A stretch of DNA of 64,000 nucleotides from Burkholderiales bacterium (GTDB lineage: Bacteria > Pseudomonadota > Gammaproteobacteria > Burkholderiales > SG8-39): positions 41,568 through 105,567 of the forward strand of contig DATGDH010000072.1 of assembly GCA_035310985.1 (NCBI GenBank), given 5' to 3'. Shown one piece after another: positions 1-13,732 of the stretch. The translations under genes and the position numbers were made by a program. Each line of letters starts with the position of its first letter. Positions within the stretch are counted from its first letter, which is position 1. The notes under the pieces are model-generated. The model was not told where the DNA came from. It saw only the letters and a program-made list of their open reading frames with translations, and ran no database searches.

Positions 1-1044
1 GACGCGGCGCAGGTCGACTGCGTGATGTTCCGCGGGCGCGCCGCCGCGCTCGATTGGACCCCGCAGGACGGCGTGCGCGTCGAGGCGCGCGCGCTGGTGA
101 CGCTTTACGAACCGCGCGGGCGCTTCCAGCTGAACGTCGAGACAATGCGGCGCGCGGGCCTGGGCCCGCTGTACGAGCGCTTCCTCAGGCTGAAGGAGAA
201 GCTCGCGCGCGAAGGCCTGTTCGACGCCGCGGTGAAGCGCGCGCCGCCCCCGCATCCGCGCGCGATCGGCGTCTTGACCTCGCTCGGCGCAGCCGCGCTG
301 CGCGACGTGCTGACCACGCTCGCGCGGCGCAACCCGACGATCACGGTGATCGTCTACCCCGTCCCCGTGCAGGGCGAAGGCGCCGCAGCGCGCATCGCCG
401 CAATGCTCGCGCTCGCCGGCGAGCGCACCGAGTGCGACGTGCTGCTGCTGGTGCGCGGCGGCGGGTCGCTCGAGGATCTGTGGCCGTTCAACGAAGAGTC
501 CGTGGCGCGCGCGATTCGCGCGTCGCCGATTCCGGTGCTGGTCGGCGTCGGGCACGAGACCGACTTCACGATCGCGGATTTCGCGGCAGACCGGCGAGCG
601 CCGACGCCGACAGCGGCCGCCGAGATGGCGAGCCCGCCGCGCGCCGAGCTGCTCGAGCGCGTCGCCGTGCTCGCGCTGCGCGCTTCGCGCGAGGCGCGCC
701 GCCGGATCGAGTACGCCATGCAGGCGGTCGACGGCCTGGCGCGTCGCCTGGTGCACCCCGCCGAGCGCATCCGCACATCGCGTCGGCTGCTCGCGCAACT
801 CGGCGCGCGCCTAGCCTCGGCCGCGGCGCGCAGCCTGGATGCGGCGCGCTACCGCGTCGAGCACCTGCGCGCTGCGCTCGCCGGCCTCGATCCGAACGCG
901 GTGCTCTCGCGCGGCTACAGCATCACGCGCAACGCGGCGGGCGAAGTGCTGCGCGACGCGGCGCGCGTGGCCGAGGGCGAGCGCCTGGTCACGACGCTGT
1001 ACCGGGGCTGGGTCGAAAGCGAGGCGAAGCGCAAGGGGTCCTGA
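1..1044 (+). CDS. xseA: exodeoxyribonuclease VII large subunit, 5' end cut by window edge
   Basis: Frame 1 is open from nt 1. Translation shows RFQLNVE, GLGPLYERF, LKEKLAREGLFD, VRGGGSLEDLWPFNEE and VGVGHETDFTIADFAADRRAPTPTAAAE, typical of XseA. Confidence 0.9.
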   Translation, partial: DAAQVDCVMFRGRAAALDWTPQDGVRVEARALVTLYEPRGRFQLNVETMRRAGLGPLYERFLRLKEKLAREGLFDAAVKRAPPPHPRAIGVLTSLGAAALRDVLTTLARRNPTITVIVYPVPVQGEGAAARIAAMLALAGERTECDVLLLVRGGGSLEDLWPFNEESVARAIRASPIPVLVGVGHETDFTIADFAADRRAPTPTAAAEMASPPRAELLERVAVLALRASREARRRIEYAMQAVDGLARRLVHPAERIRTSRRLLAQLGARLASAAARSLDAARYRVEHLRAALAGLDPNAVLSRGYSITRNAAGEVLRDAARVAEGERLVTTLYRGWVESEAKRKGS

Positions 1045-1059
1045 GGCCGCGATGCGATA

Positions 1060-1626
1060 ATGCCCGCCATGGCTCACCGGCTGTCCAAAATCGCGACGCG
1101 TACCGGAGACGCCGGCGAGACCGGCCTCGGCGACGGCACGCGCGCGCCAAAGGACAGCCCGCGCGTGCAGGCGCTGGGCGACATCGACGAGCTCAACTCG
1201 GCGCTCGGCCTGCTGCTCGCCGAGGAGGTCCCGGACGCAATGCGCGCTGCGCTAGAGCAAGTGCAGCAGGACCTGTTCGACCTGGGCGGCGAAGCGAGCA
1301 TTCCCGGCCACCGGATCCTCGGCGAGGCGCAGGTCGCGCGCCTGGACACCCTGCTCGAAGACTGGAACCGTGATTTGCCGCCCCTCAAGGAATTCGTCCT
1401 GCCCGGCGGCTCGCGCGCCGCGGCAGCCGCCCACCTGGCACGCACGGTTTGCCGGCGGGCCGAGCGCAGCCTGGTCGCTCTCGGCCGGCGCGAGACGGTC
1501 GGCGAGCAAGCGCGCCGGTACCTGAACCGGCTCTCCGACCTGCTATTCGTTGCCGCTCGGCTGCTCAATCGCTATGCCGGGCGCTCGGACGTCATGTGGC
1601 GTCACGACCGAAGCAAGAACCGTTGA
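1060..1626 (+). CDS. ATP:cob(I)alamin adenosyltransferase, PduO type
   Basis: N-terminus RLSKIATRTGDAGETGLGDG and GDIDELNSALGLL match the PduO/MMAB family. GAGG lies 12 nt upstream of ATG 1060; an alternative ATG is at 1069. Confidence 0.85.
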   Translation: MPAMAHRLSKIATRTGDAGETGLGDGTRAPKDSPRVQALGDIDELNSALGLLLAEEVPDAMRAALEQVQQDLFDLGGEASIPGHRILGEAQVARLDTLLEDWNRDLPPLKEFVLPGGSRAAAAAHLARTVCRRAERSLVALGRRETVGEQARRYLNRLSDLLFVAARLLNRYAGRSDVMWRHDRSKNR

Positions 1627-2344: not shown

Positions 2345-2752
2345 ATGGCAGAGATCAAGATCAGCAACGTCGAGTCGCTCGGCAGGCCGCTCGGCCAGTA
2401 TTCGCACATGACGCGCGCGAAAGCCGCCGAATACCTGTTCATCGCGGGCATGCTTGCCTCCGACAAGGCGGGCAACGTGGTAGGCAAGGACGATTTCGAC
2501 GCGCAATGCACGCAAGTGTTCGGCAACATCGCCGCCGCGCTCGAGTCGGCGGGCGCAGGCTGGGGCAACGTGGTCCAGTTCACCACCTATCTCGTGCACT
2601 CGCAGGATATTGCGCGCTTCATGGCCTTCAGACAGAAGGCCTTTCCGCGCATGTTTCCGAACGGCGTCTATCCGCCCAATACCCTGCTCGTCGTCGACCG
2701 GCTCGTGCAGGAACCCTATCTCGTCGAGATTCAGACGATCGCCGCGCTCTAA
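2345..2752 (+). CDS. RidA/YjgF family reactive-intermediate deaminase-like protein
   Basis: About 135 aa with the YjgF-like pattern (GQYSH..., FIAGM..., NVVQFTTYL..., LVEIQTIA). GGAGAGG lies just upstream of ATG 2345. Confidence 0.85.
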   Translation: MAEIKISNVESLGRPLGQYSHMTRAKAAEYLFIAGMLASDKAGNVVGKDDFDAQCTQVFGNIAAALESAGAGWGNVVQFTTYLVHSQDIARFMAFRQKAFPRMFPNGVYPPNTLLVVDRLVQEPYLVEIQTIAAL

Positions 2753-2898
2753 TCGGTGGCGGATAGTCGACAGCAATCGTCGACCTTTCGACCCCGGAAA
2801 TCCGGCAAAATTCACGTTTATTCAATGCGTTATCGAATATCCGAGGGCTCTGGCCGCCAGGCATGGCGCTTGCGTAGCCATAGGGCGAGGAGCCGATC

Positions 2899-3330
2899 AT
2901 GGAACTACTCGATCAAGACTTCAGCGCAAGGCGCGTCGCGCCAGGGAGCGAACGGCCGGCCCGCGTGCTGGTGGTGCACGACCAGGAATCGACGCGTCTG
3001 CTCCTCGCCCACATCGTCAGCCGGGAGCCCAACACGCGCGTCGTGCTGGCCGGCACCTGCGAGCAGGCACTGCAGTTCGCGGATGCAACGACCTACGACA
3101 TGATCCTTCTCGACCTGATGATGCCGGGAATCGGCGGCCTCGAAGTGCTCAGGCGGCTGCGCGTCGGCGCGACCAACCGCTGGACGCCGGTCGTGGTCGT
3201 CTCGGCGCGCGATGATCGCGAAGCGAGGCTGCGCTGCAAGGCGCTCGGCGCCAATGCCTTCGTCACCAAGCCGGTCGCGCGTGCAGACATCGTCGCGGCA
3301 TTGCGCGCGCACTCCGCTCAAGCGCACTGA
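2899..3330 (+). CDS. stand-alone response-regulator receiver domain (CheY-like, no output domain)
   Basis: RVLVVHDQES, DMILLDLMMPGIGGLEVL, PVVVVSA and AFVTKP give the D/T(S)/K receiver pattern. Only 143 aa. GAGGAG RBS upstream. Confidence 0.8.
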   Translation: MELLDQDFSARRVAPGSERPARVLVVHDQESTRLLLAHIVSREPNTRVVLAGTCEQALQFADATTYDMILLDLMMPGIGGLEVLRRLRVGATNRWTPVVVVSARDDREARLRCKALGANAFVTKPVARADIVAALRAHSAQAH

Positions 3331-6448: not shown

Positions 6449-6814
6449 GTGCGCGCGCAAACCTTTGCCTGGCTCATCCCGCTCTCGATCCTGCTCATGG
6501 GCGCCGCCCAAGCGGCCGAAATCGCCATCGTGCAGCCTGCGCACGAGGAGACGATCCACAACAACGAGGGCGACCTTACCGTCCAGGTCGCGCATTCGGG
6601 CGGCGAGCCGGACGGCAGCGTGCGGCTCGTGCTGGACGGGACCGCGCTGCCCCACAGCTACCGCTCGGACGTCATCGAGCTGATCGGCATCGACCGCGGC
6701 ACGCACACGCTACAGGCGGAGCTGCTAGACGCCAAAGGCGGGCAGCTTGCCGCCTCGGAGCCGGTCACTTTCTACATGTGGCAGGCGTCGCGCCTTTTCC
6801 CCAGTCGCAAGTGA
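6449..6814 (+). CDS. small secreted hypothetical protein
   Basis: AAGGAGG lies 6 nt upstream of GTG 6449. N-terminal signal peptide (LIPLSILLMGAAQA/AE). GC3-rich codons. No family recognised. Confidence 0.55.
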   Translation: MRAQTFAWLIPLSILLMGAAQAAEIAIVQPAHEETIHNNEGDLTVQVAHSGGEPDGSVRLVLDGTALPHSYRSDVIELIGIDRGTHTLQAELLDAKGGQLAASEPVTFYMWQASRLFPSRK

Positions 6815-6832
6815 GCACGCCGCCGGCCCCGT

Positions 6833-7399
6833 TCACGTCTCAGCAGCCGGCCCCCGCTCTCCGATGAGGCGCAGCAGCCGTGTGCTCGTAGCGCGCAAGC
6901 GCTGCGAGAGCACCAGCACCAGCTCCATCAGGATCTTGGAGCCGAGCAGCGGCTGCTCCACGATGATGCGCGCCAGCCGGTCGCGGTCGAGCACCGCGAA
7001 TGTGGTGGGCTCGGTCGCGACGCAGGCGGCGAAGCGTGGCTCGCCGTCCAGCATGGACATTTCGCCCAGAGTGCGGCCTCCGTCGGCGACGGCGATCACC
7101 TGCTGACGCTCGTTCGCATCGCGCTTGAGCACTTCGACGCGGCCCTCGATCACGAGCAGCATGAAGTCGCCGCCGTCACCTTCGCGGATCACCTCGGTGC
7201 CGGCGGTGGCGCGAAACACCTCCATGAAGTGCGCCAGCGTGCGCACCTCGGCGGCGGAGAAATTCTCCAGCAGCCGGCAGCGCGGAATCAGCACGTGAAT
7301 CTGATTGGCGAACTTGGTTGCGTCGCCGAGGTACTCCAGGTGCGCGAGCTGCTTCGGGCGGTCGGCCATGGCGCTGGCGGAGGTGTGATCTCGCGGCAT
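6833..7399 (-). CDS. cyclic-nucleotide-binding domain protein (no HTH)
   Basis: LLENFSAAEV...GTEVIREGDGGDFMLLVIEGRVEV...GRTLGEMSMLDGEPRFAACVA is a cNMP-binding beta-barrel pattern. Only 188 aa, with no DNA-binding domain. Confidence 0.8.
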   Translation of the reverse strand: MPRDHTSASAMADRPKQLAHLEYLGDATKFANQIHVLIPRCRLLENFSAAEVRTLAHFMEVFRATAGTEVIREGDGGDFMLLVIEGRVEVLKRDANERQQVIAVADGGRTLGEMSMLDGEPRFAACVATEPTTFAVLDRDRLARIIVEQPLLGSKILMELVLVLSQRLRATSTRLLRLIGERGPAAET

Positions 7400-7411: not shown

Positions 7412-8167
7412 TTAGCCCACTGCGGCGCGCGCGAGCAGCGAGACGCCGGATACGACGAGCAGCGCGTACACCAGCCGCACTACGGCACCGGCAGGCACCG
7501 CCGCGTGCAGGCGGTTGCCGATCGCGAAGCCGCCGAGCAGCGCCGGGACGAGCATCAGGGCCAGGCTTATCAGCCCGTCCTGGGAGAGAAGTCCGGTGGC
7601 GCCGAAAAGCACGGCGCGCACGACCGAGGACAGCATGATCGTCGCCGCATTGGTGGCGCGCAGTTCGGCCTTGTCGCGGATGCGGCCGCTGTTGTAGATC
7701 GCGTACAGCACGCCCCCCGTGCCGAACAGCACCGACAGCGCGCCCCCGGCGAGACCGATCGGCGCACTCCACGCGCGCGCGAGCCGCACAGGCGCGCCGC
7801 GTCGCGACAGACCGTAGCCCGCGTAGGCGAGCACGAACACGCCGAGCGCAGCGAGCAGCCCTTGTTCCGGCAGCGCGATGAGCAACGTCAGACCGAGCGC
7901 CATCCCCGCGAGCATGAACGGCACCAGCCATCCCGCCTCGGCGTAGCGGATGCGGCGCCGGAAGCGCGCACCGAAGAGGGCGAACGCCGCCAGGTCGAGC
8001 AGCATCATCAGGGGCACGGCGAATCTGAGGGGCAGTAACTGCGCGAGCAGCGGCATCGCCACCACGGTGGAGCCGAAGCCCGTCATCCCGTAGACCGCAT
8101 AGGCGCCGGTCACGATCAGCGCCGCGAGGGCGATCGTGGCGGGCGAGAGCGCCTCCAGGGAAGTCAG
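7412..8167 (-). CDS. TauE/SafE family membrane transporter (sulfite-exporter family)
   Basis: Multi-TM protein with GMTGFGSTVV...P and GGALSVLFGTGG repeats typical of TauE/SafE. The 455-aa track ORF is Arg-rich upstream and lies inside aroG. There is no ATG/TTG before TM1; candidates are CTG 8167, CTG 8158 and GTG 8113. Start uncertain. Confidence 0.7.
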   Translation of the reverse strand: MTSLEALSPATIALAALIVTGAYAVYGMTGFGSTVVAMPLLAQLLPLRFAVPLMMLLDLAAFALFGARFRRRIRYAEAGWLVPFMLAGMALGLTLLIALPEQGLLAALGVFVLAYAGYGLSRRGAPVRLARAWSAPIGLAGGALSVLFGTGGVLYAIYNSGRIRDKAELRATNAATIMLSSVVRAVLFGATGLLSQDGLISLALMLVPALLGGFAIGNRLHAAVPAGAVVRLVYALLVVSGVSLLARAAVG

Positions 8168-9300
8168 TTCCCGGCGTCCGCGTTCGCGCCCGCGCCGGCT
8201 AGCGCGCGCCGCTTGCGCACGGCATCCGCAAGCACCTCGAGCGCGGCCGTGGAATCGTCCCAGCCTAGGCAGGCGTCGGTGATGCTTTGCCCGAAGGCGA
8301 GCGGCTGACCCGCCATGAGATCCTGGCGCCCCTCGACCAGGTTCGACTCGATCATCAGGCCGACGATGCGTTGCTCGCCCCCGGCGATGCGGCCGGCCAC
8401 CTCGTCGCACACCTTGAGCTGCTGCCTGAAGTCCTTGCGGCTGTTGGCGTGCGAGCAGTCGATCATCAGGCGCTCGGCGAGACCTGCGCGGCGCAGTTCC
8501 TCGGAGGCGGCGTCCACGCTCGCGGCATCGTAGTTCGGCTGCTTGCCGCCGCGCAGGATGATGTGGCAGTCGTCGTTGCCGCGCGTCTCGACGATCGCCA
8601 CCTGCCCGCTCTTGTGCACCGAGAGGAAGTGGTGCTTCTGGCGCGCGGCGAGAATCGCGTCCACCGCGATCCTCACGTTGCCGTCCGTGCCGTTCTTGAA
8701 GCCGACAGCGGCCGACAATCCCGAGGCAAGCTCGCGGTGCACTTGCGACTCCGTCGTGCGCGCGCCGATCGCGCCCCACGAGACCAGGTCGCCGATGTAC
8801 TGCGGCGAGATCACGTCGAGAAATTCGCAGCCGGCAGGCACGCCGAGTTGGTTGATGCGCACGAGCAGGTCTCGCGCGATGCGCAGTCCTTCGTTTATGC
8901 GAAAGCTGCCGTTCATGTACGGATCGTTGATCAGGCCCTTCCAGCCCACCGTGGTGCGCGGCTTCTCGAAGTACACACGCATCAGCACCTCGAGCTCACT
9001 CGCATGCCGCTGGCGCTCGGCGGCGAGCCGTCCGGCATACGCGAGTGCCGCCGCCGGGTCGTGGATCGAGCACGGGCCGATAACCACCAGCAGCCGGTCG
9101 GACTGCCCATGCAGCACCGCGCGCACGCGCCGCCGAGTGTCGGAGATGAGCGTCTCGACCGGCGTGCCCTGGATCGGAAAGAAACGGATCAGGTGCTCGG
9201 GCGGAGGCAGCGGGACGATGTTCTCGATGCGCTCGTCGTCGGTGAGCGAGGTCTTGTCTATCGGCGGAACCGCCAGGTAGTTGTCGGTGGGTGCAGTCAT
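8164..9300 (-). CDS. aroG: 3-deoxy-7-phosphoheptulonate (DAHP) synthase, class I
   Basis: GPCSIHD, VYFEKPRTTVGWKGLINDP, WGAIGARTTESQVHRE, GFKNGTDG, IDCSHANS and LMIESNL are class I-alpha DAHP synthase signatures. ATG 9300 is preferred over TTG 9321, which lies in the terminator T-tract. Isozyme type is inferred from the Phe leader. Confidence 0.93.
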   Translation of the reverse strand: MTAPTDNYLAVPPIDKTSLTDDERIENIVPLPPPEHLIRFFPIQGTPVETLISDTRRRVRAVLHGQSDRLLVVIGPCSIHDPAAALAYAGRLAAERQRHASELEVLMRVYFEKPRTTVGWKGLINDPYMNGSFRINEGLRIARDLLVRINQLGVPAGCEFLDVISPQYIGDLVSWGAIGARTTESQVHRELASGLSAAVGFKNGTDGNVRIAVDAILAARQKHHFLSVHKSGQVAIVETRGNDDCHIILRGGKQPNYDAASVDAASEELRRAGLAERLMIDCSHANSRKDFRQQLKVCDEVAGRIAGGEQRIVGLMIESNLVEGRQDLMAGQPLAFGQSITDACLGWDDSTAALEVLADAVRKRRALAGAGANADAGN

Positions 9301-9319
9301 GGCTGTCTTCGGCAGTGGC

Positions 9320-9352
9320 AAAAAAAAACCGCCAGGCTTTGGGCTCTGGCGG
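9320..9352 (-). terminator. intrinsic terminator / attenuator hairpin upstream of aroG
   Basis: Minus strand reads CCGCCAG-AGCCCAAAGC-CUGGCGG followed by nine U (9328..9320), 19 nt before the aroG ATG. A third copy of CUGGCGG at 9398..9392 can compete for the 5' arm. Confidence 0.65.
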
Positions 9353-9377
9353 TTTTCGGGATCAGTTCGGGCTGCGG

Positions 9378-9443
9378 CTAGCCGTTCCCCTCCGCCAGAT
9401 GGCGCGGGAAAAAGAAGAAAAATCCGTAAAACCAGCGGTTCAT
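9378..9443 (-). CDS. aromatic (Phe-rich) leader peptide MNRWFYGFFFFFPRHLAEGNG
   Basis: ATG 9443 with GAGGG 7 nt upstream. It has 21 codons including TTT TTC TTC TTT TTC in a row plus Trp and Tyr, with stop TAG at 9380..9378. It is followed by alternative hairpins and a U9 terminator. Too short for the ORF track. Confidence 0.6.
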   Translation of the reverse strand: MNRWFYGFFFFFPRHLAEGNG

Positions 9444-9461
9444 CGCATTACCCTCGCCACG

Positions 9462-9491
9462 ATTGAAGCACGGCGCCCCTCGCCTTGGCAA
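9462..9491 (-). promoter_or_regulatory. candidate sigma70 promoter for the leader-aroG transcript
   Basis: Minus strand TTGCCA (9491..9486), 18-nt spacer, TTCAAT (9467..9462). Sequence match only. Confidence 0.3.
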
Positions 9492-9652
9492 CTGGAACGT
9501 GACTAGCACTCGAGGCTTGCCGCTGCCAGTCCGACGGGCGGCGCCCTACAGCGGAAGCCCGGCACAGCCCCATTGGCCCGACTATTGCTACGCTAGAAGG
9601 TGTCGTGCTAAGTTTTTCGCGCGGTCGTTCCGCCGAAAAACAAGGAGGCAAT

Positions 9653-10633
9653 ATGTCGGCAAGCGTCGCTCAACCTGTCTCGATTCCGGTCGCCGGCTTC
9701 AGGGACGTCTACAGCGTCGGAGATGTCGAGCGGGCCTTGCAGGAGCTACCGCCCTCGTCGAACGAGGCCCTGCGCACGGTATACGAGAAGATGCTGCGCG
9801 TCGGCGGGCAGCGCTTCACAGTCAAGCCCTCGGCGATGCCGTCCATGGACGAGCTGTTCGAAGAACTGCCCAATTTCGCGGCCGTGCTCGAGGATATCCG
9901 CCGCCAGCTCGCGCTGTGCATCGACTCGAACGACTCGATCGAGCTCGCGCCGGCGCTGCTGCTCGGGGAGCCCGGCATCGGCAAGACGCACTTCGCGCGC
10001 CGCGTTGCGCAGCTGCTCGGCACGGGCTTCGGCTTCGTGCCGATGAGCTCGCTCACCGCGGGATGGATTCTCTCCGGCGCATCTTCGCAGTGGAAGAACT
10101 CCAAGCCCGGCAAAGTGTTCGAGACTTTCCTGCACGGCGACTACGCCAACCCGGTGATGGTAATCGACGAGCTCGACAAGGCCGCAGACGGCGGCCAGTA
10201 CGACCCGCTCGGCGCGCTCTACGGGCTGCTCGAGAGCGCTACCGCGATGCAGTTCGTGGACGAGTTCGTCGAGATCCCGATCGACGCTTCGGGCGCGGTC
10301 TGGTTCGCGACGGCGAACGACGCAGGGCGCATTCCGGAACCGATCCTGAACCGCATGAACGTCTATGAGATCGAGCCACCAGACGCGGAAGGCTCGGCGC
10401 GCATCGCGCGCTCGATCTACCGCGAGATCCGCGGCGCACACGACTGGGGACGCCGATTCCCCGAAGAGCCCGGCGCCGCCCTCATCGAGAAGCTTGCCGC
10501 GTTCACGCCGCGCGAGATGCGCCGTGCCGTACAGACCGCGTTCGGCAACGCGAAGATCGCCGGCCGCAGCGAGGTGGGCCCGGACGACGTGCCGGATTAC
10601 CGCGGCGCGCGCCGCCAGCGCGTCGGCTTCTAG
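9653..10633 (+). CDS. AAA+ ATPase (Lon-like ATPase module without protease domain)
   Basis: Walker A LLLGEPGIGKTH, Walker B VMVIDELDK, FATAND and ILNRM sensor-like motifs. AAGGAGG lies 4 nt upstream of ATG 9653. Confidence 0.8.
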   Translation: MSASVAQPVSIPVAGFRDVYSVGDVERALQELPPSSNEALRTVYEKMLRVGGQRFTVKPSAMPSMDELFEELPNFAAVLEDIRRQLALCIDSNDSIELAPALLLGEPGIGKTHFARRVAQLLGTGFGFVPMSSLTAGWILSGASSQWKNSKPGKVFETFLHGDYANPVMVIDELDKAADGGQYDPLGALYGLLESATAMQFVDEFVEIPIDASGAVWFATANDAGRIPEPILNRMNVYEIEPPDAEGSARIARSIYREIRGAHDWGRRFPEEPGAALIEKLAAFTPREMRRAVQTAFGNAKIAGRSEVGPDDVPDYRGARRQRVGF

Positions 10634-11106
10634 GCCTTCGCCAGAAGCCGGCCGCAGGCCAGCACCGAGATCCACACGGCGAGCGACAGCGCCGCGGCGA
10701 CGCGCGCTGCAGCGGGCGGCACGGCCTGCGTGTCCCAGCGCTCGGCGCCGCGGAACGTCCCGGCGTGAAACAGCGCCGCATTGGTGCCGCCGCCCAGGAT
10801 CAGCATCATCTTTAGCGCGAAGAGCGGGCTGCCGATTAGCTCGCCCGCGCGCGCAAGGAACATGAGCAGGCCGCTCGGCACGATGAGCAGGAAGCTCACC
10901 GCCGTCCAGGGCAGCACGTGCGCGGCGAGGCGCCGCACCGGAATCGTGCGCGAGAGCCCCAGCAGGCGCAGATCGAGCACCGCGACCGTGCCGACGAGCA
11001 GTGCGACGCCCGTCAGGTGCACAATCGCGACCGCGGTGTGAAGCGCGCTCGGCGCGCGCAGCGCCACCGCCAGCGGCAGCGACTCGATCGCGACGAGCGG
11101 CGTCAT
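10630..11106 (-). CDS. hypothetical integral membrane protein (about 4 TM)
   Basis: Hydrophobic 158-aa protein starting 10 nt downstream of the alaS stop, so probably co-transcribed. Family not recognised with confidence. Confidence 0.6.
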   Translation of the reverse strand: MTPLVAIESLPLAVALRAPSALHTAVAIVHLTGVALLVGTVAVLDLRLLGLSRTIPVRRLAAHVLPWTAVSFLLIVPSGLLMFLARAGELIGSPLFALKMMLILGGGTNAALFHAGTFRGAERWDTQAVPPAAARVAAALSLAVWISVLACGRLLAKA

Positions 11107-11116
11107 CGCGCCGCGG

Positions 11117-13732
<2,616 letters not shown>

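Follow-up and report, generated by a model that had tools for sequence, protein, structure and literature searches.

A conserved aromatic leader peptide and a predicted ribosome-mediated transcription attenuator upstream of class-I DAHP synthase genes in Burkholderiales

This paper focuses on a regulatory element upstream of the gene for a 3-deoxy-D-arabino-heptulosonate 7-phosphate (DAHP) synthase in a Burkholderiales bacterium (assembly GCA_035310985.1, contig DATGDH010000072.1, positions 41,568 to 105,567). The whole stretch of 64,000 nucleotides (nt), referred to as the window, was scanned; the element is located on the minus strand, and all coordinates are positions in the whole window. 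The gene at 9300..8164 (minus strand) encodes a class-I DAHP synthase of the AroF/G/H family with 378 amino acids (aa), as identified with the NCBIfam model TIGR00034 (aroFGH; 527 bits, cutoff 173). An original prediction for this DNA had designated the gene aroG and had proposed that it is controlled by a Phe-rich leader peptide and an attenuator of the pheL/pheA type. The assignment to the class-I DAHP synthases was retained, but the score on the AroG equivalog model was 539 bits and thus below the model cutoff of 568. An assignment to the Phe-, Tyr- or Trp-sensitive isozyme by the NCBIfam models was rejected, the scores for AroG, AroF-like and AroH being too close to each other. In the following, the element is described as what it very probably is, a classical ribosome-mediated transcription attenuator.

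Upstream of the DAHP synthase gene, a leader ORF (open reading frame) of 21 codons, MNRWFYGFFFFFPRHLAEGNG plus stop, is present at 9443..9378 of the minus strand, with the ATG at 9443..9441 and the stop codon TAG at 9380..9378. Together with the preceding bases it reads GAGGG-TAATGCG-ATG AAC CGC TGG TTT TAC GGA TTT TTC TTC TTT TTC CCG CGC CAT CTG GCG GAG GGG AAC GGC TAG. Aromatic residues occupy 8 of the 21 codons, namely six Phe, five of which are consecutive (TTT TTC TTC TTT TTC, 9422..9408), plus Trp4 and Tyr6. From the sequence and from a fold per codon, Trp4, Phe5, Tyr6 and Phe8-Phe12 (9408..9434) were assigned as the regulatory aromatic codons. A near-identical leader peptide, MTRWFYGFFFFFPRPLAEGNG, is present in one metagenome copy. 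The G+C content drops to 0.56 at 9350..9499, compared to 0.65-0.77 in the flanking DNA, in agreement with the AT-rich island described before, and every coordinate predicted for the leader ORF, the Phe run, Trp and Tyr was verified in the sequence. With regard to codon usage, the leader contains three TTT and three TTC codons for Phe, while alaS of the window (11117..13732) contains 3 TTT and 36 TTC. Over the 63 leaders identified in related loci, 175 TTT versus 110 TTC codons were counted, so that the rarer codon is heavily used. This could sharpen the sensitivity of the leader, or it could simply mirror the U-rich context.

Within and behind the leader ORF, four RNA segments were distinguished. 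Segment 1 (9411..9401, UUUCCC-G-CGCC), which overlaps the last Phe codons, was identified as the 5' arm of a hairpin designated P1 by minimum free energy (MFE) folds, conservation and RNAalifold. On the basis of folds and covariation, segment 2 (9398..9385, CUGGCGG-A-GGGGAA) serves either P1, as its 3' arm, or the antiterminator, as its 5' arm, and segment 3 (9361..9346, UCCC-GAAAA-CCGCCAG) is the partner of either segment 2 or segment 4, the latter being the 3' arm of the terminator. In P1 (9411..9385, -14.3 kcal/mol), UUUCCC-G-CGCC pairs with GGCG-GA-GGGGAA (9396..9385), and in the antiterminator (-20.9 kcal/mol), CUGGCGG-A-G-GGGA (9398..9386) pairs with segment 3. The intrinsic terminator GAAAACCGCCAGaGC-CCAAA-GCCUGGCGGUUUUU extends from 9357 to 9320 including its U tract (-22.3 kcal/mol). 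The original prediction was based on the three heptamers CUGGCGG (9398..9392), CCGCCAG (9352..9346) and CUGGCGG (9335..9329), followed by nine U (9328..9320) ending 19 nt ahead of the ATG at 9300, and all of these were found in place. It had numbered as segments 1, 2 and 3 what are here the cores of segment 2, segment 3 and the terminator 3' arm. The alternative pairing was retained, but the number of three segments was not, since the conserved P1 makes four. The element is of a four-segment design (1:2, 2:3, 3:4), in which P1 sequesters segment 2 and is a classical anti-antiterminator.

For the 176-nt region, a fold of -63.5 kcal/mol (z = -2.1) was calculated, containing the strong terminator hairpin and a second hairpin within the leader ORF. 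A simple consensus scan called no terminator or promoter at the element. The terminator hairpin was missed because its stem carries a bulged A, and the -10 box because the scan demands an A at position 2. The terminator (9322..9356) is nearly symmetrical, with AAAA ahead of the stem and U9 behind it; a covariance model scores the plus strand with 21 bits, and a reverse-complement match of the terminator was also found in many relatives. In principle, it could also halt antisense transcription from within the DAHP synthase gene.

For a comparison with related organisms, 80 orthologous loci (L001-L080; 60-82% identity, nearly all from Burkholderiales) were collected by a scan with the DAHP synthase protein, using one genome per species. 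An aromatic-rich mini-ORF was defined as an ATG ORF with at least five Phe, Tyr or Trp in nine residues, and the upstream region as 480 nt. The 80 upstream regions contain 63 such mini-ORFs and the rest of these loci (1.0 Mb) contains 9, which corresponds to a background of 0.0043 per region and to an enrichment of about 180-fold. Examples of the leader peptides are MSAARAFYFAYFWFPVSGGREARA in Variovorax, MSAKFYFYFFWHLRPLADREG in Caballeronia and Burkholderia, MSFARFYFHFYFSYSSPTAVEKR... in Oxalobacteraceae and MSRYFFFGFFYFPCLLAEGTG in the closest relatives. The median leader contains four Phe, two Tyr and one Trp. Leaders of the window clade (...FP[CR]xLAEG[NT]G) contain five to six Phe and zero to one each of Tyr and Trp, and this clade is the Phe-dominated end of the Phe/Tyr/Trp mix of the family.

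The canonical terminator, AACCGCC(A/G)G-loop-C(U/C)GGCGGUUUU, is present in 61 of the 65 regions with an aromatic leader (64 loci and the window), about 20-50 nt past the leader stop. In most leader regions, a copy of the 3'-arm heptamer is located 45-52 nt past the ATG, immediately behind the aromatic codons. A covariance model designated R1, which was trained on 60 sequences and describes only P1 and the terminator, matched 65 of the 80 loci, including five outside the training set; two matches are cut by contig ends. In the window, a single match of R1 was obtained (9321..9458, minus strand, 74 bits). The short ORF, the terminator and the alternative pairing, for which an alignment of orthologous regions had been proposed as a check, are thus kept in 65 of the 80 loci.

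The association was also analyzed in the reverse direction, by scanning metagenome contigs with a DNA pattern of segments 2-3-4 and scoring the matches with R1. This resulted in 84 further full-length copies, of which 77 have a DAHP synthase gene within 400 nt. Six others are cut by a contig end and one, L144, has a DAHP synthase N-terminal fragment; none of the 84 metagenome copies was found to precede any other gene. An ATG leader ORF is present in 80 of the 84 copies, and four gave no clean ORF by simple extraction. One metagenome locus, L137 (OJQI01006970.1, 1..2956), contains two DAHP synthase paralogues in tandem, and a separate copy of the element precedes each of them (2627..2771 and 1296..1449, minus strand). 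One leader of this pair is Tyr-rich (MLNHVYGAYYYYGFFRLPAERVLWCA, with YGAYYYYGFF) and the other Phe-rich (MNYRARFYFTFNFFPCPAERVVSCA, with FYFTFNFF), which would fit the expectation of an isozyme-specific sensing by codon content.

In L144 (Ga0137409_10197521, 86..420), an intact attenuator with the leader MTLRSGFFFFYFPCLLADGTG is followed by an ORF which opens DAHP synthase-like (MTTPLDSYLATGLGDNASLTEDD...) and continues with a sequence unrelated to DAHP synthase. This ORF is either a gene that has been rearranged or has decayed, or it results from a chimeric assembly.

A fortuitous ORF beside an ordinary terminator would be conceivable at 65-70% G+C, where G/C-rich heptamers are frequent. However, the window contains a single run of five TTY codons and a single match of the composite pattern CTGGCGG-N30-60-CCGCCAG-N3-20-CTGGCGGTTTT, neither of which was present in any of 100 dinucleotide-preserving shuffles. 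In addition, the enrichment of the mini-ORFs, the R1 matches in the orthologous loci and the 84 metagenome copies would have to be coincidental. Chance or artefact was ruled out by these comparative data, and its probability is regarded as negligible.

The base pairing was analyzed on an alignment of 64 sequences, A3, which is based on a covariance model fitted only to P1 and the terminator. It replaces a MAFFT alignment, A1, in which the P1 3' arm of the window clade sat one column off. On A3, the antiterminator core (segments 2:3) is paired in 91.5% of the cells, compared to 15-62% with the partner slid by one to three columns. At one antiterminator pair, 26 sequences have CG and 21 have UA; followed across all three segments, this position reads C/G/C in 26 and U/A/U in 18 sequences. 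A second three-way change was identified in L072 (AGCGG / CCGCU / UUAGCGG). The 11 stem pairs of the terminator are 93% paired, with GC in 35 and AU in 25 sequences at one pair, and the outer helix of P1 is paired in 91% of the cells, with UA-to-CG and CG-to-UA compensations. P1 and the terminator were also predicted independently by RNAalifold. The second helix of the antiterminator (GGGA:UCCC in the window, GAGG:CCUC elsewhere) differs in register between clades and is supported by the folds of single sequences only.

In 39 of the 63 leaders, the last aromatic codon contains the start of the P1 5' arm, 1 nt from the beginning of the codon, and segment 2 starts 10-12 nt further on. The reading frame of the segment 2 core is 0 in 33 leaders (Leu-Ala-Glu/Asp), 1 in 28 ((Pro)-Gly-Gly) and 2 in two; since the frames differ, selection acts here on the RNA. 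At the aromatic positions, synonymous changes (TTT/TTC, TAT/TAC) and exchanges of Phe, Tyr and Trp occur while the frame is kept, and selection at these positions therefore acts on the meaning of the codons. The conserved C-terminal "motifs" of the peptides are thus shadows of the RNA constraint.

These data bear on the possibility that the mini-ORF is an independent gene for a small hydrophobic protein with a terminator of its own, the alternative pairings being incidental. The length (17-30 aa) and the aromatic content of the ORF are kept across families, small hydrophobic proteins are common and usually unannotated, and ten exact leader sequences were absent from a collection of 15 billion proteins. 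However, the C-terminal half is conserved as RNA, with the same heptamer being translated to LAE in one clade but to PGG in a different one, and the heptamer co-varies with both arms of the terminator. Moreover, the element was found only before DAHP synthase genes, the leaders differ between the tandem paralogues, and the peptides matched no NCBIfam family at E<=10 (five leaders) and no Pfam family at E<=1 (three leaders). A separate small protein is thus considered extremely unlikely.

A second possibility is a premature terminator controlled by an RNA-binding protein of the TRAP or PyrR type, by a riboswitch or by Rho, with the aromatic codons as a by-product of a requirement for U-rich RNA. 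The almost invariant CCGCC/GGCGG core could mark a protein or ligand site, the leader is U-rich, as reflected in its use of TTT, and 61 of the 63 leaders lack a Shine-Dalgarno motif. However, a near-invariance of the core is expected because the three segments must change together. The start codon, the open frame and the stop codon are kept in nearly every copy, and the aromatic run contains TAC/TAT and TGG in addition to U runs, always in the frame of the ORF. No riboswitch or other Rfam family was matched, and RNAalifold and the alignment revealed no conserved aptamer-like structured domain besides the three helices. Control of the terminator without a ribosome is therefore rated as very unlikely.

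The terminator and its surroundings are conserved to an unusual degree, and this might reflect an additional role with the attenuator being intact, either of the terminated transcript (about 135 nt) as a small RNA in trans or of the peptide in trans. Terminated attenuator RNAs with roles in trans are known, the Sinorhizobium trp attenuator RNA rnTrpL being a precedent. Nothing in the data requires such a role, however, and the three-way pairing constraint explains the conservation, so that an additional role in trans appears unlikely.

For the analysis of the attenuator itself, alternative folds were calculated for all 64 sequences. When a ribosome was simulated on the aromatic codons with the RNA extending up to segment 3, the antiterminator core was present in the MFE structure in 64 of 64 cases, with a mean of -21.3 kcal/mol. 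For the free full-length RNA, the simulation resulted in the terminator in 53 of the 64 sequences and in the antiterminator in two. In the window, all seven core pairs of the antiterminator were formed with the A site on codons 4-11 and five of seven on codon 12, and the core was lost from codon 13 onward; without a ribosome, P1 forms and the antiterminator does not. The earlier proposal that a ribosome stalled early in the Phe run leaves the 5' segment of the antiterminator free is borne out in this simulation. The comparison of fold energies proposed along with it was also carried out and gave the values of -20.9 kcal/mol for the antiterminator and -22.3 kcal/mol for the terminator already mentioned.

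Upstream of the leader ORF, a candidate extended -10 box, TGcTTCAAT (TGCTTCAAT), was identified at 9470..9462 (minus strand) as part of a putative promoter, with equivalent boxes in relatives. A candidate -35 hexamer, TTGCCA, read from the sequence 18 nt upstream of the -10 box (9491..9486), is poorly conserved. At the place of the -10 box, the closest relatives L001, L002, L049 and L144 contain TGCTTGAAT, and most loci of the Comamonadaceae type contain TGTGCTACATT. In 38 of the 63 cases, the leader lacks a Shine-Dalgarno motif and its ATG follows 5-9 nt after the end of an extended -10-like box (typically TGTGCTACATT, but also TGCTTGAAT), for example in L003 (2765..2782), L005 (2745..2762) and L049 (1948..1965), and a further 22 leaders lack both a nearby -10 box and a Shine-Dalgarno motif. 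A box with the sequence TATAAA or TATAGT is located about 35-40 nt upstream in Burkholderia and Oxalobacteraceae. The location of the -10 box near the ATG without a Shine-Dalgarno motif suggests that, in most relatives, the leader is translated from a leaderless mRNA.

A Shine-Dalgarno motif was identified for only two of the 63 leaders, those of the window and of L072. In the window, the Shine-Dalgarno-like GAGGG (9455..9451, minus strand) described in the original prediction is real and lies 7 nt ahead of the leader ATG, but it is not a feature of the family. The -10 box of the window is 18 nt from the ATG, and 13 extra bases (GGCGAGGGTAATG-like) including GAGGG lie in between. These bases are absent from L002 and L049, and the window has its Shine-Dalgarno motif because of this insertion.

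Taken together, the pheL/pheA-style attenuation proposed for the DAHP synthase gene is supported by the conservation in 65 of the 80 loci, the three-way covariation and the antiterminator folds in 64 of 64 simulations with a stalled ribosome. These results, along with the sequence anatomy and the exclusive association with DAHP synthase genes, are direct observations on the sequences and their computed folds. According to the proposed mechanism, the transcript would begin some tens of bases ahead of 9443, with the leader of 21 codons being translated as RNA polymerase advances. When charged tRNA-Phe, and perhaps tRNA-Tyr and tRNA-Trp, is plentiful, the ribosome would clear the aromatic codons and then cover or adjoin segment 2 (9398..9385), or P1 (9411..9385) would re-form behind it. 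Segment 3 (9361..9346) would be left free to pair with segment 4, and the terminator (9357..9320) would stop the transcript 19 nt before the ATG of the DAHP synthase gene. When charged aromatic tRNA is scarce, the ribosome would stall at the Phe run (9422..9408) with its footprint over segment 1, so that P1 could not form. The segment 2 freed in this way would pair with segment 3 on its emergence (-20.9 kcal/mol), the terminator would be blocked, and the polymerase would continue into the DAHP synthase gene and probably also into the downstream genes for a TauE family protein and a cNMP-binding protein (cNMP, cyclic nucleotide monophosphate).

Several points weigh against this mechanism. Leader translation, ribosome stalling, the kinetic choice between the folds and the promoter are functional steps that we infer. 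In the full-length RNA of the window, the terminator always beats the antiterminator at equilibrium, and the switch therefore must be kinetic, as in the trp paradigm; a kinetic switch of this kind is something that folding energies cannot demonstrate. The covariation is based on few columns, because most stem positions are invariant, and the aligned sequences are mutually related, a phylogeny which the shuffle controls ignore. The register of P1 differs between clades, and the annotated P1 pairs are present in the MFE structure of only 34 of the 64 sequences. Trp4, Phe5 and Tyr6 of the window lie 15 nt or more ahead of segment 1 and possibly do not act as sensors. In the relatives lacking a Shine-Dalgarno motif, translation of the leader depends on a putative leaderless or Shine-Dalgarno-independent start. 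Finally, R1 found no element in 15 of the 80 loci, which belong to Rhodocyclales, Polynucleobacter, Cupriavidus, Ferrovum and a few metagenome-assembled genomes (MAGs).

A further point of this kind concerns the ribosome at the leader stop, which had been predicted to occlude the 5' segment of the antiterminator at least partly. A ribosome at the stop codon of the window (9380..9378) would cover about 9395..9368, and thereby four bases of the heptamer and its GGGG extension. With a gap of 12 nt between heptamer and stop, the predicted occlusion thus holds for the window, but it is not conserved. The gaps in the family extend from 2 to 33 nt (median 17 nt), and a terminating ribosome would, in most relatives, be too distant to cover the core of segment 2. 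The conserved feature is P1 and not the occlusion at the stop codon.

In the 15 loci without an R1 match, a relaxed search for aromatic ORFs was positive only for L068 (about 2802..2965) and L078 (about 2795..2884), both with a different terminator. These loci are from MAGs labelled Chloroflexota and Anaerolineae, with mini-ORFs such as ...CFSYFWFSYF.... The terminator of L068, GCGCGGGGCUGG-UAAG-CCCCGCGC, is very strong (-27 kcal/mol). The mini-ORFs of L068 and L078 may represent an independent variant.

Downstream of the DAHP synthase gene, two more genes are encoded on the minus strand. A gene of the TauE family (Pfam PF01925, about 8170..7412) shares a CTGA junction with the DAHP synthase stop codon, and a stand-alone cNMP-binding-domain protein of 188 aa (Pfam PF00027, 7399..6833) follows after a gap of 12 nt. 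Because of the CTGA junction and the short gap, cotranscription of the three genes is likely. The gene order is confined to the nearest relatives: the TauE gene follows in L001 only, the cNMP-binding gene follows in L049 (3184..3654) and L053 (4355..4777), and in L002 it is located 2.4 kb away (6501..6965). The co-regulation that had been predicted for these co-oriented genes is plausible here, but the gene order on which it is based is limited to the closest relatives.

For the TauE family ORF, no ATG, GTG or TTG was identified near the N-terminus (8164..8170 region), and the Pfam match begins at residue 17 of the translation starting from the CTG of the junction. It is possible that CTG is used as the start codon with translational coupling, or that another start is used. 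On the other side of the element, the divergent neighbour at 9653..10633 (plus strand) codes for 326 aa, in which a Lon-like AAA+ ATPase module (TIGR00763 partial, PF00004) is the only one identified, and a membrane-like ORF of 158 aa at 10630..11106 (minus strand) matched no family. Both ORFs are syntenic with the unit of attenuator and DAHP synthase gene in L002 and L049.

The data can be combined to a wider reading, which is held only tentatively and with slightly less than even confidence. In this reading, an attenuator family exclusive to class-I DAHP synthase genes would be present across the order Burkholderiales, its 6-9 aromatic codons would integrate the charging of up to three tRNAs (Phe, Tyr and Trp) with a composition tuned to each isozyme, and most leaders would be translated from a leaderless mRNA starting at the leader AUG, with the ribosome loading as the transcript emerges. 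Since the mechanism is a textbook one, the conceptual surprise is modest. What appears to be new is the presence of the textbook attenuation logic at a gene and in a clade where it is uncatalogued, with an unusually clean comparative support, and the mixed aromatic sensing and the apparently leaderless leader peptides are the two features of note.

In E. coli, the entry into the shikimate pathway is controlled by the repressors TyrR and TrpR and by feedback inhibition. The results indicate that in Burkholderiales, including Comamonadaceae, Burkholderiaceae, Oxalobacteraceae, Alcaligenaceae and their relatives, the first committed step is gated through the charging of aromatic tRNAs, either in place of such control or in addition to it. 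For annotation pipelines, which now miss the RNA and the mini-ORF alike, the element provides an RNA family of about 150 copies. For strain engineering, deletion or recoding of the leader should deregulate the DAHP synthase in Burkholderia, Cupriavidus-like and Comamonas hosts bearing the element. The leaders with varied Phe:Tyr:Trp ratios represent a natural series on codon composition and attenuator specificity, and the apparently leaderless leader peptides of Proteobacteria form a test set for the onset of coupling without a Shine-Dalgarno motif.

In databases, no leader family was identified for the element. A permissive Rfam search (E<=10) over 9100..9800 gave sub-threshold terminator look-alikes as the best matches, for example NsiR1 with 20 versus 39 bits, and at the gathering score no match was obtained in 20 related loci. 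The models Phe_leader (RF01859) and Trp_leader (RF00513) did not match the element of the window even at E<=10. RF01859 is also placed differently, upstream of pheA in Gammaproteobacteria, while the element described here precedes DAHP synthase genes and has its relatives in Burkholderiales. In the literature searched, no such element was found for Burkholderiales, but an earlier prediction in Betaproteobacteria is possible, for example in Vitreschak et al. 2004 (FEMS Microbiol Lett) or Panina et al. 2001; aro genes do not appear in Naville & Gautheret 2010, Seliverstov 2005 and Korolev 2016. The original prediction had considered an attenuator at a DAHP synthase gene as worth a look, given the E. 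coli paradigm of repressor control. The element is absent from Rfam, NCBIfam and Pfam. For the attenuation of a DAHP synthase gene as such, there are precedents in Corynebacterium glutamicum (aroR-aroF) and Acholeplasma (uORFC-13-1).

For C. glutamicum, the leader aroR, containing Phe-Tyr-Phe, is described to attenuate aroF, with read-through increasing when Phe is limiting (PMC4046766; PMC11802643, citing Neshat et al. 2014), and the account in PMC11802643 gives the Tyr supply as being without effect. The regulated enzyme, the position and the logic of the mechanism are the same as for the Burkholderiales element. However, C. glutamicum is an actinobacterium, its leader contains three aromatic codons compared to 6-9 here, and the system was tested experimentally, while the one described here is predicted from the sequence. 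An independent origin of aroR and the Burkholderiales element seems likely. For Acholeplasma, where it precedes aroF, uORFC-13-1 is described with 24 representatives, all of them upstream of DAHP synthase genes; it combines a predicted ORF containing one or more Phe codons with an intrinsic terminator behind it (Brewer et al. 2021, PMC8632094). The arrangement is similar to the one presented here, and it is likewise predicted only. By its description, and by this description only, uORFC-13-1 is an RNA motif of another kind, set apart by its occurrence in Mollicutes and environmental sequences and by having no long mixed aromatic run. If it is contained in Rfam 15, the Rfam searches revealed no match of it to the element.

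In E. coli, the attenuators pheL-pheA and pheM-pheST (Zurawski 1978 and Gavini & Pulakat 1991, as cited in PMC11802643) share with the element a short leader ORF with a Phe run, the alternative hairpins 1:2, 2:3 and 3:4, a terminator located just before a gene of Phe metabolism, and an antiterminator which is favoured by the stalled ribosome. They differ in the regulated gene, pheA or pheST in E. coli and the gene for the initial enzyme of the common aromatic pathway here, and no Rfam match links them to the element. Further, the family described here is betaproteobacterial, usually contains Tyr and Trp codons in addition, and mostly lacks a Shine-Dalgarno motif.

The four segments, with a 1:2 hairpin over the regulatory codons, a 2:3 antiterminator, a 3:4 terminator and a kinetic choice between them, are also present in E. 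coli trpL (RF00513). However, trpL contains two Trp codons for the sensing of one amino acid and its stop codon is located before segment 2, whereas the ORF described here runs through segment 2. A leader with codons for several products of a branched pathway is found in the E. coli thr (Thr and Ile) and ilvGMEDA (Ile, Leu and Val) systems. While the leader of the window is Phe-dominated and its Tyr and Trp codons are putative sensors, the mix of Phe, Tyr and Trp codons in the family as a whole is comparable to that in thr and ilvGMEDA.

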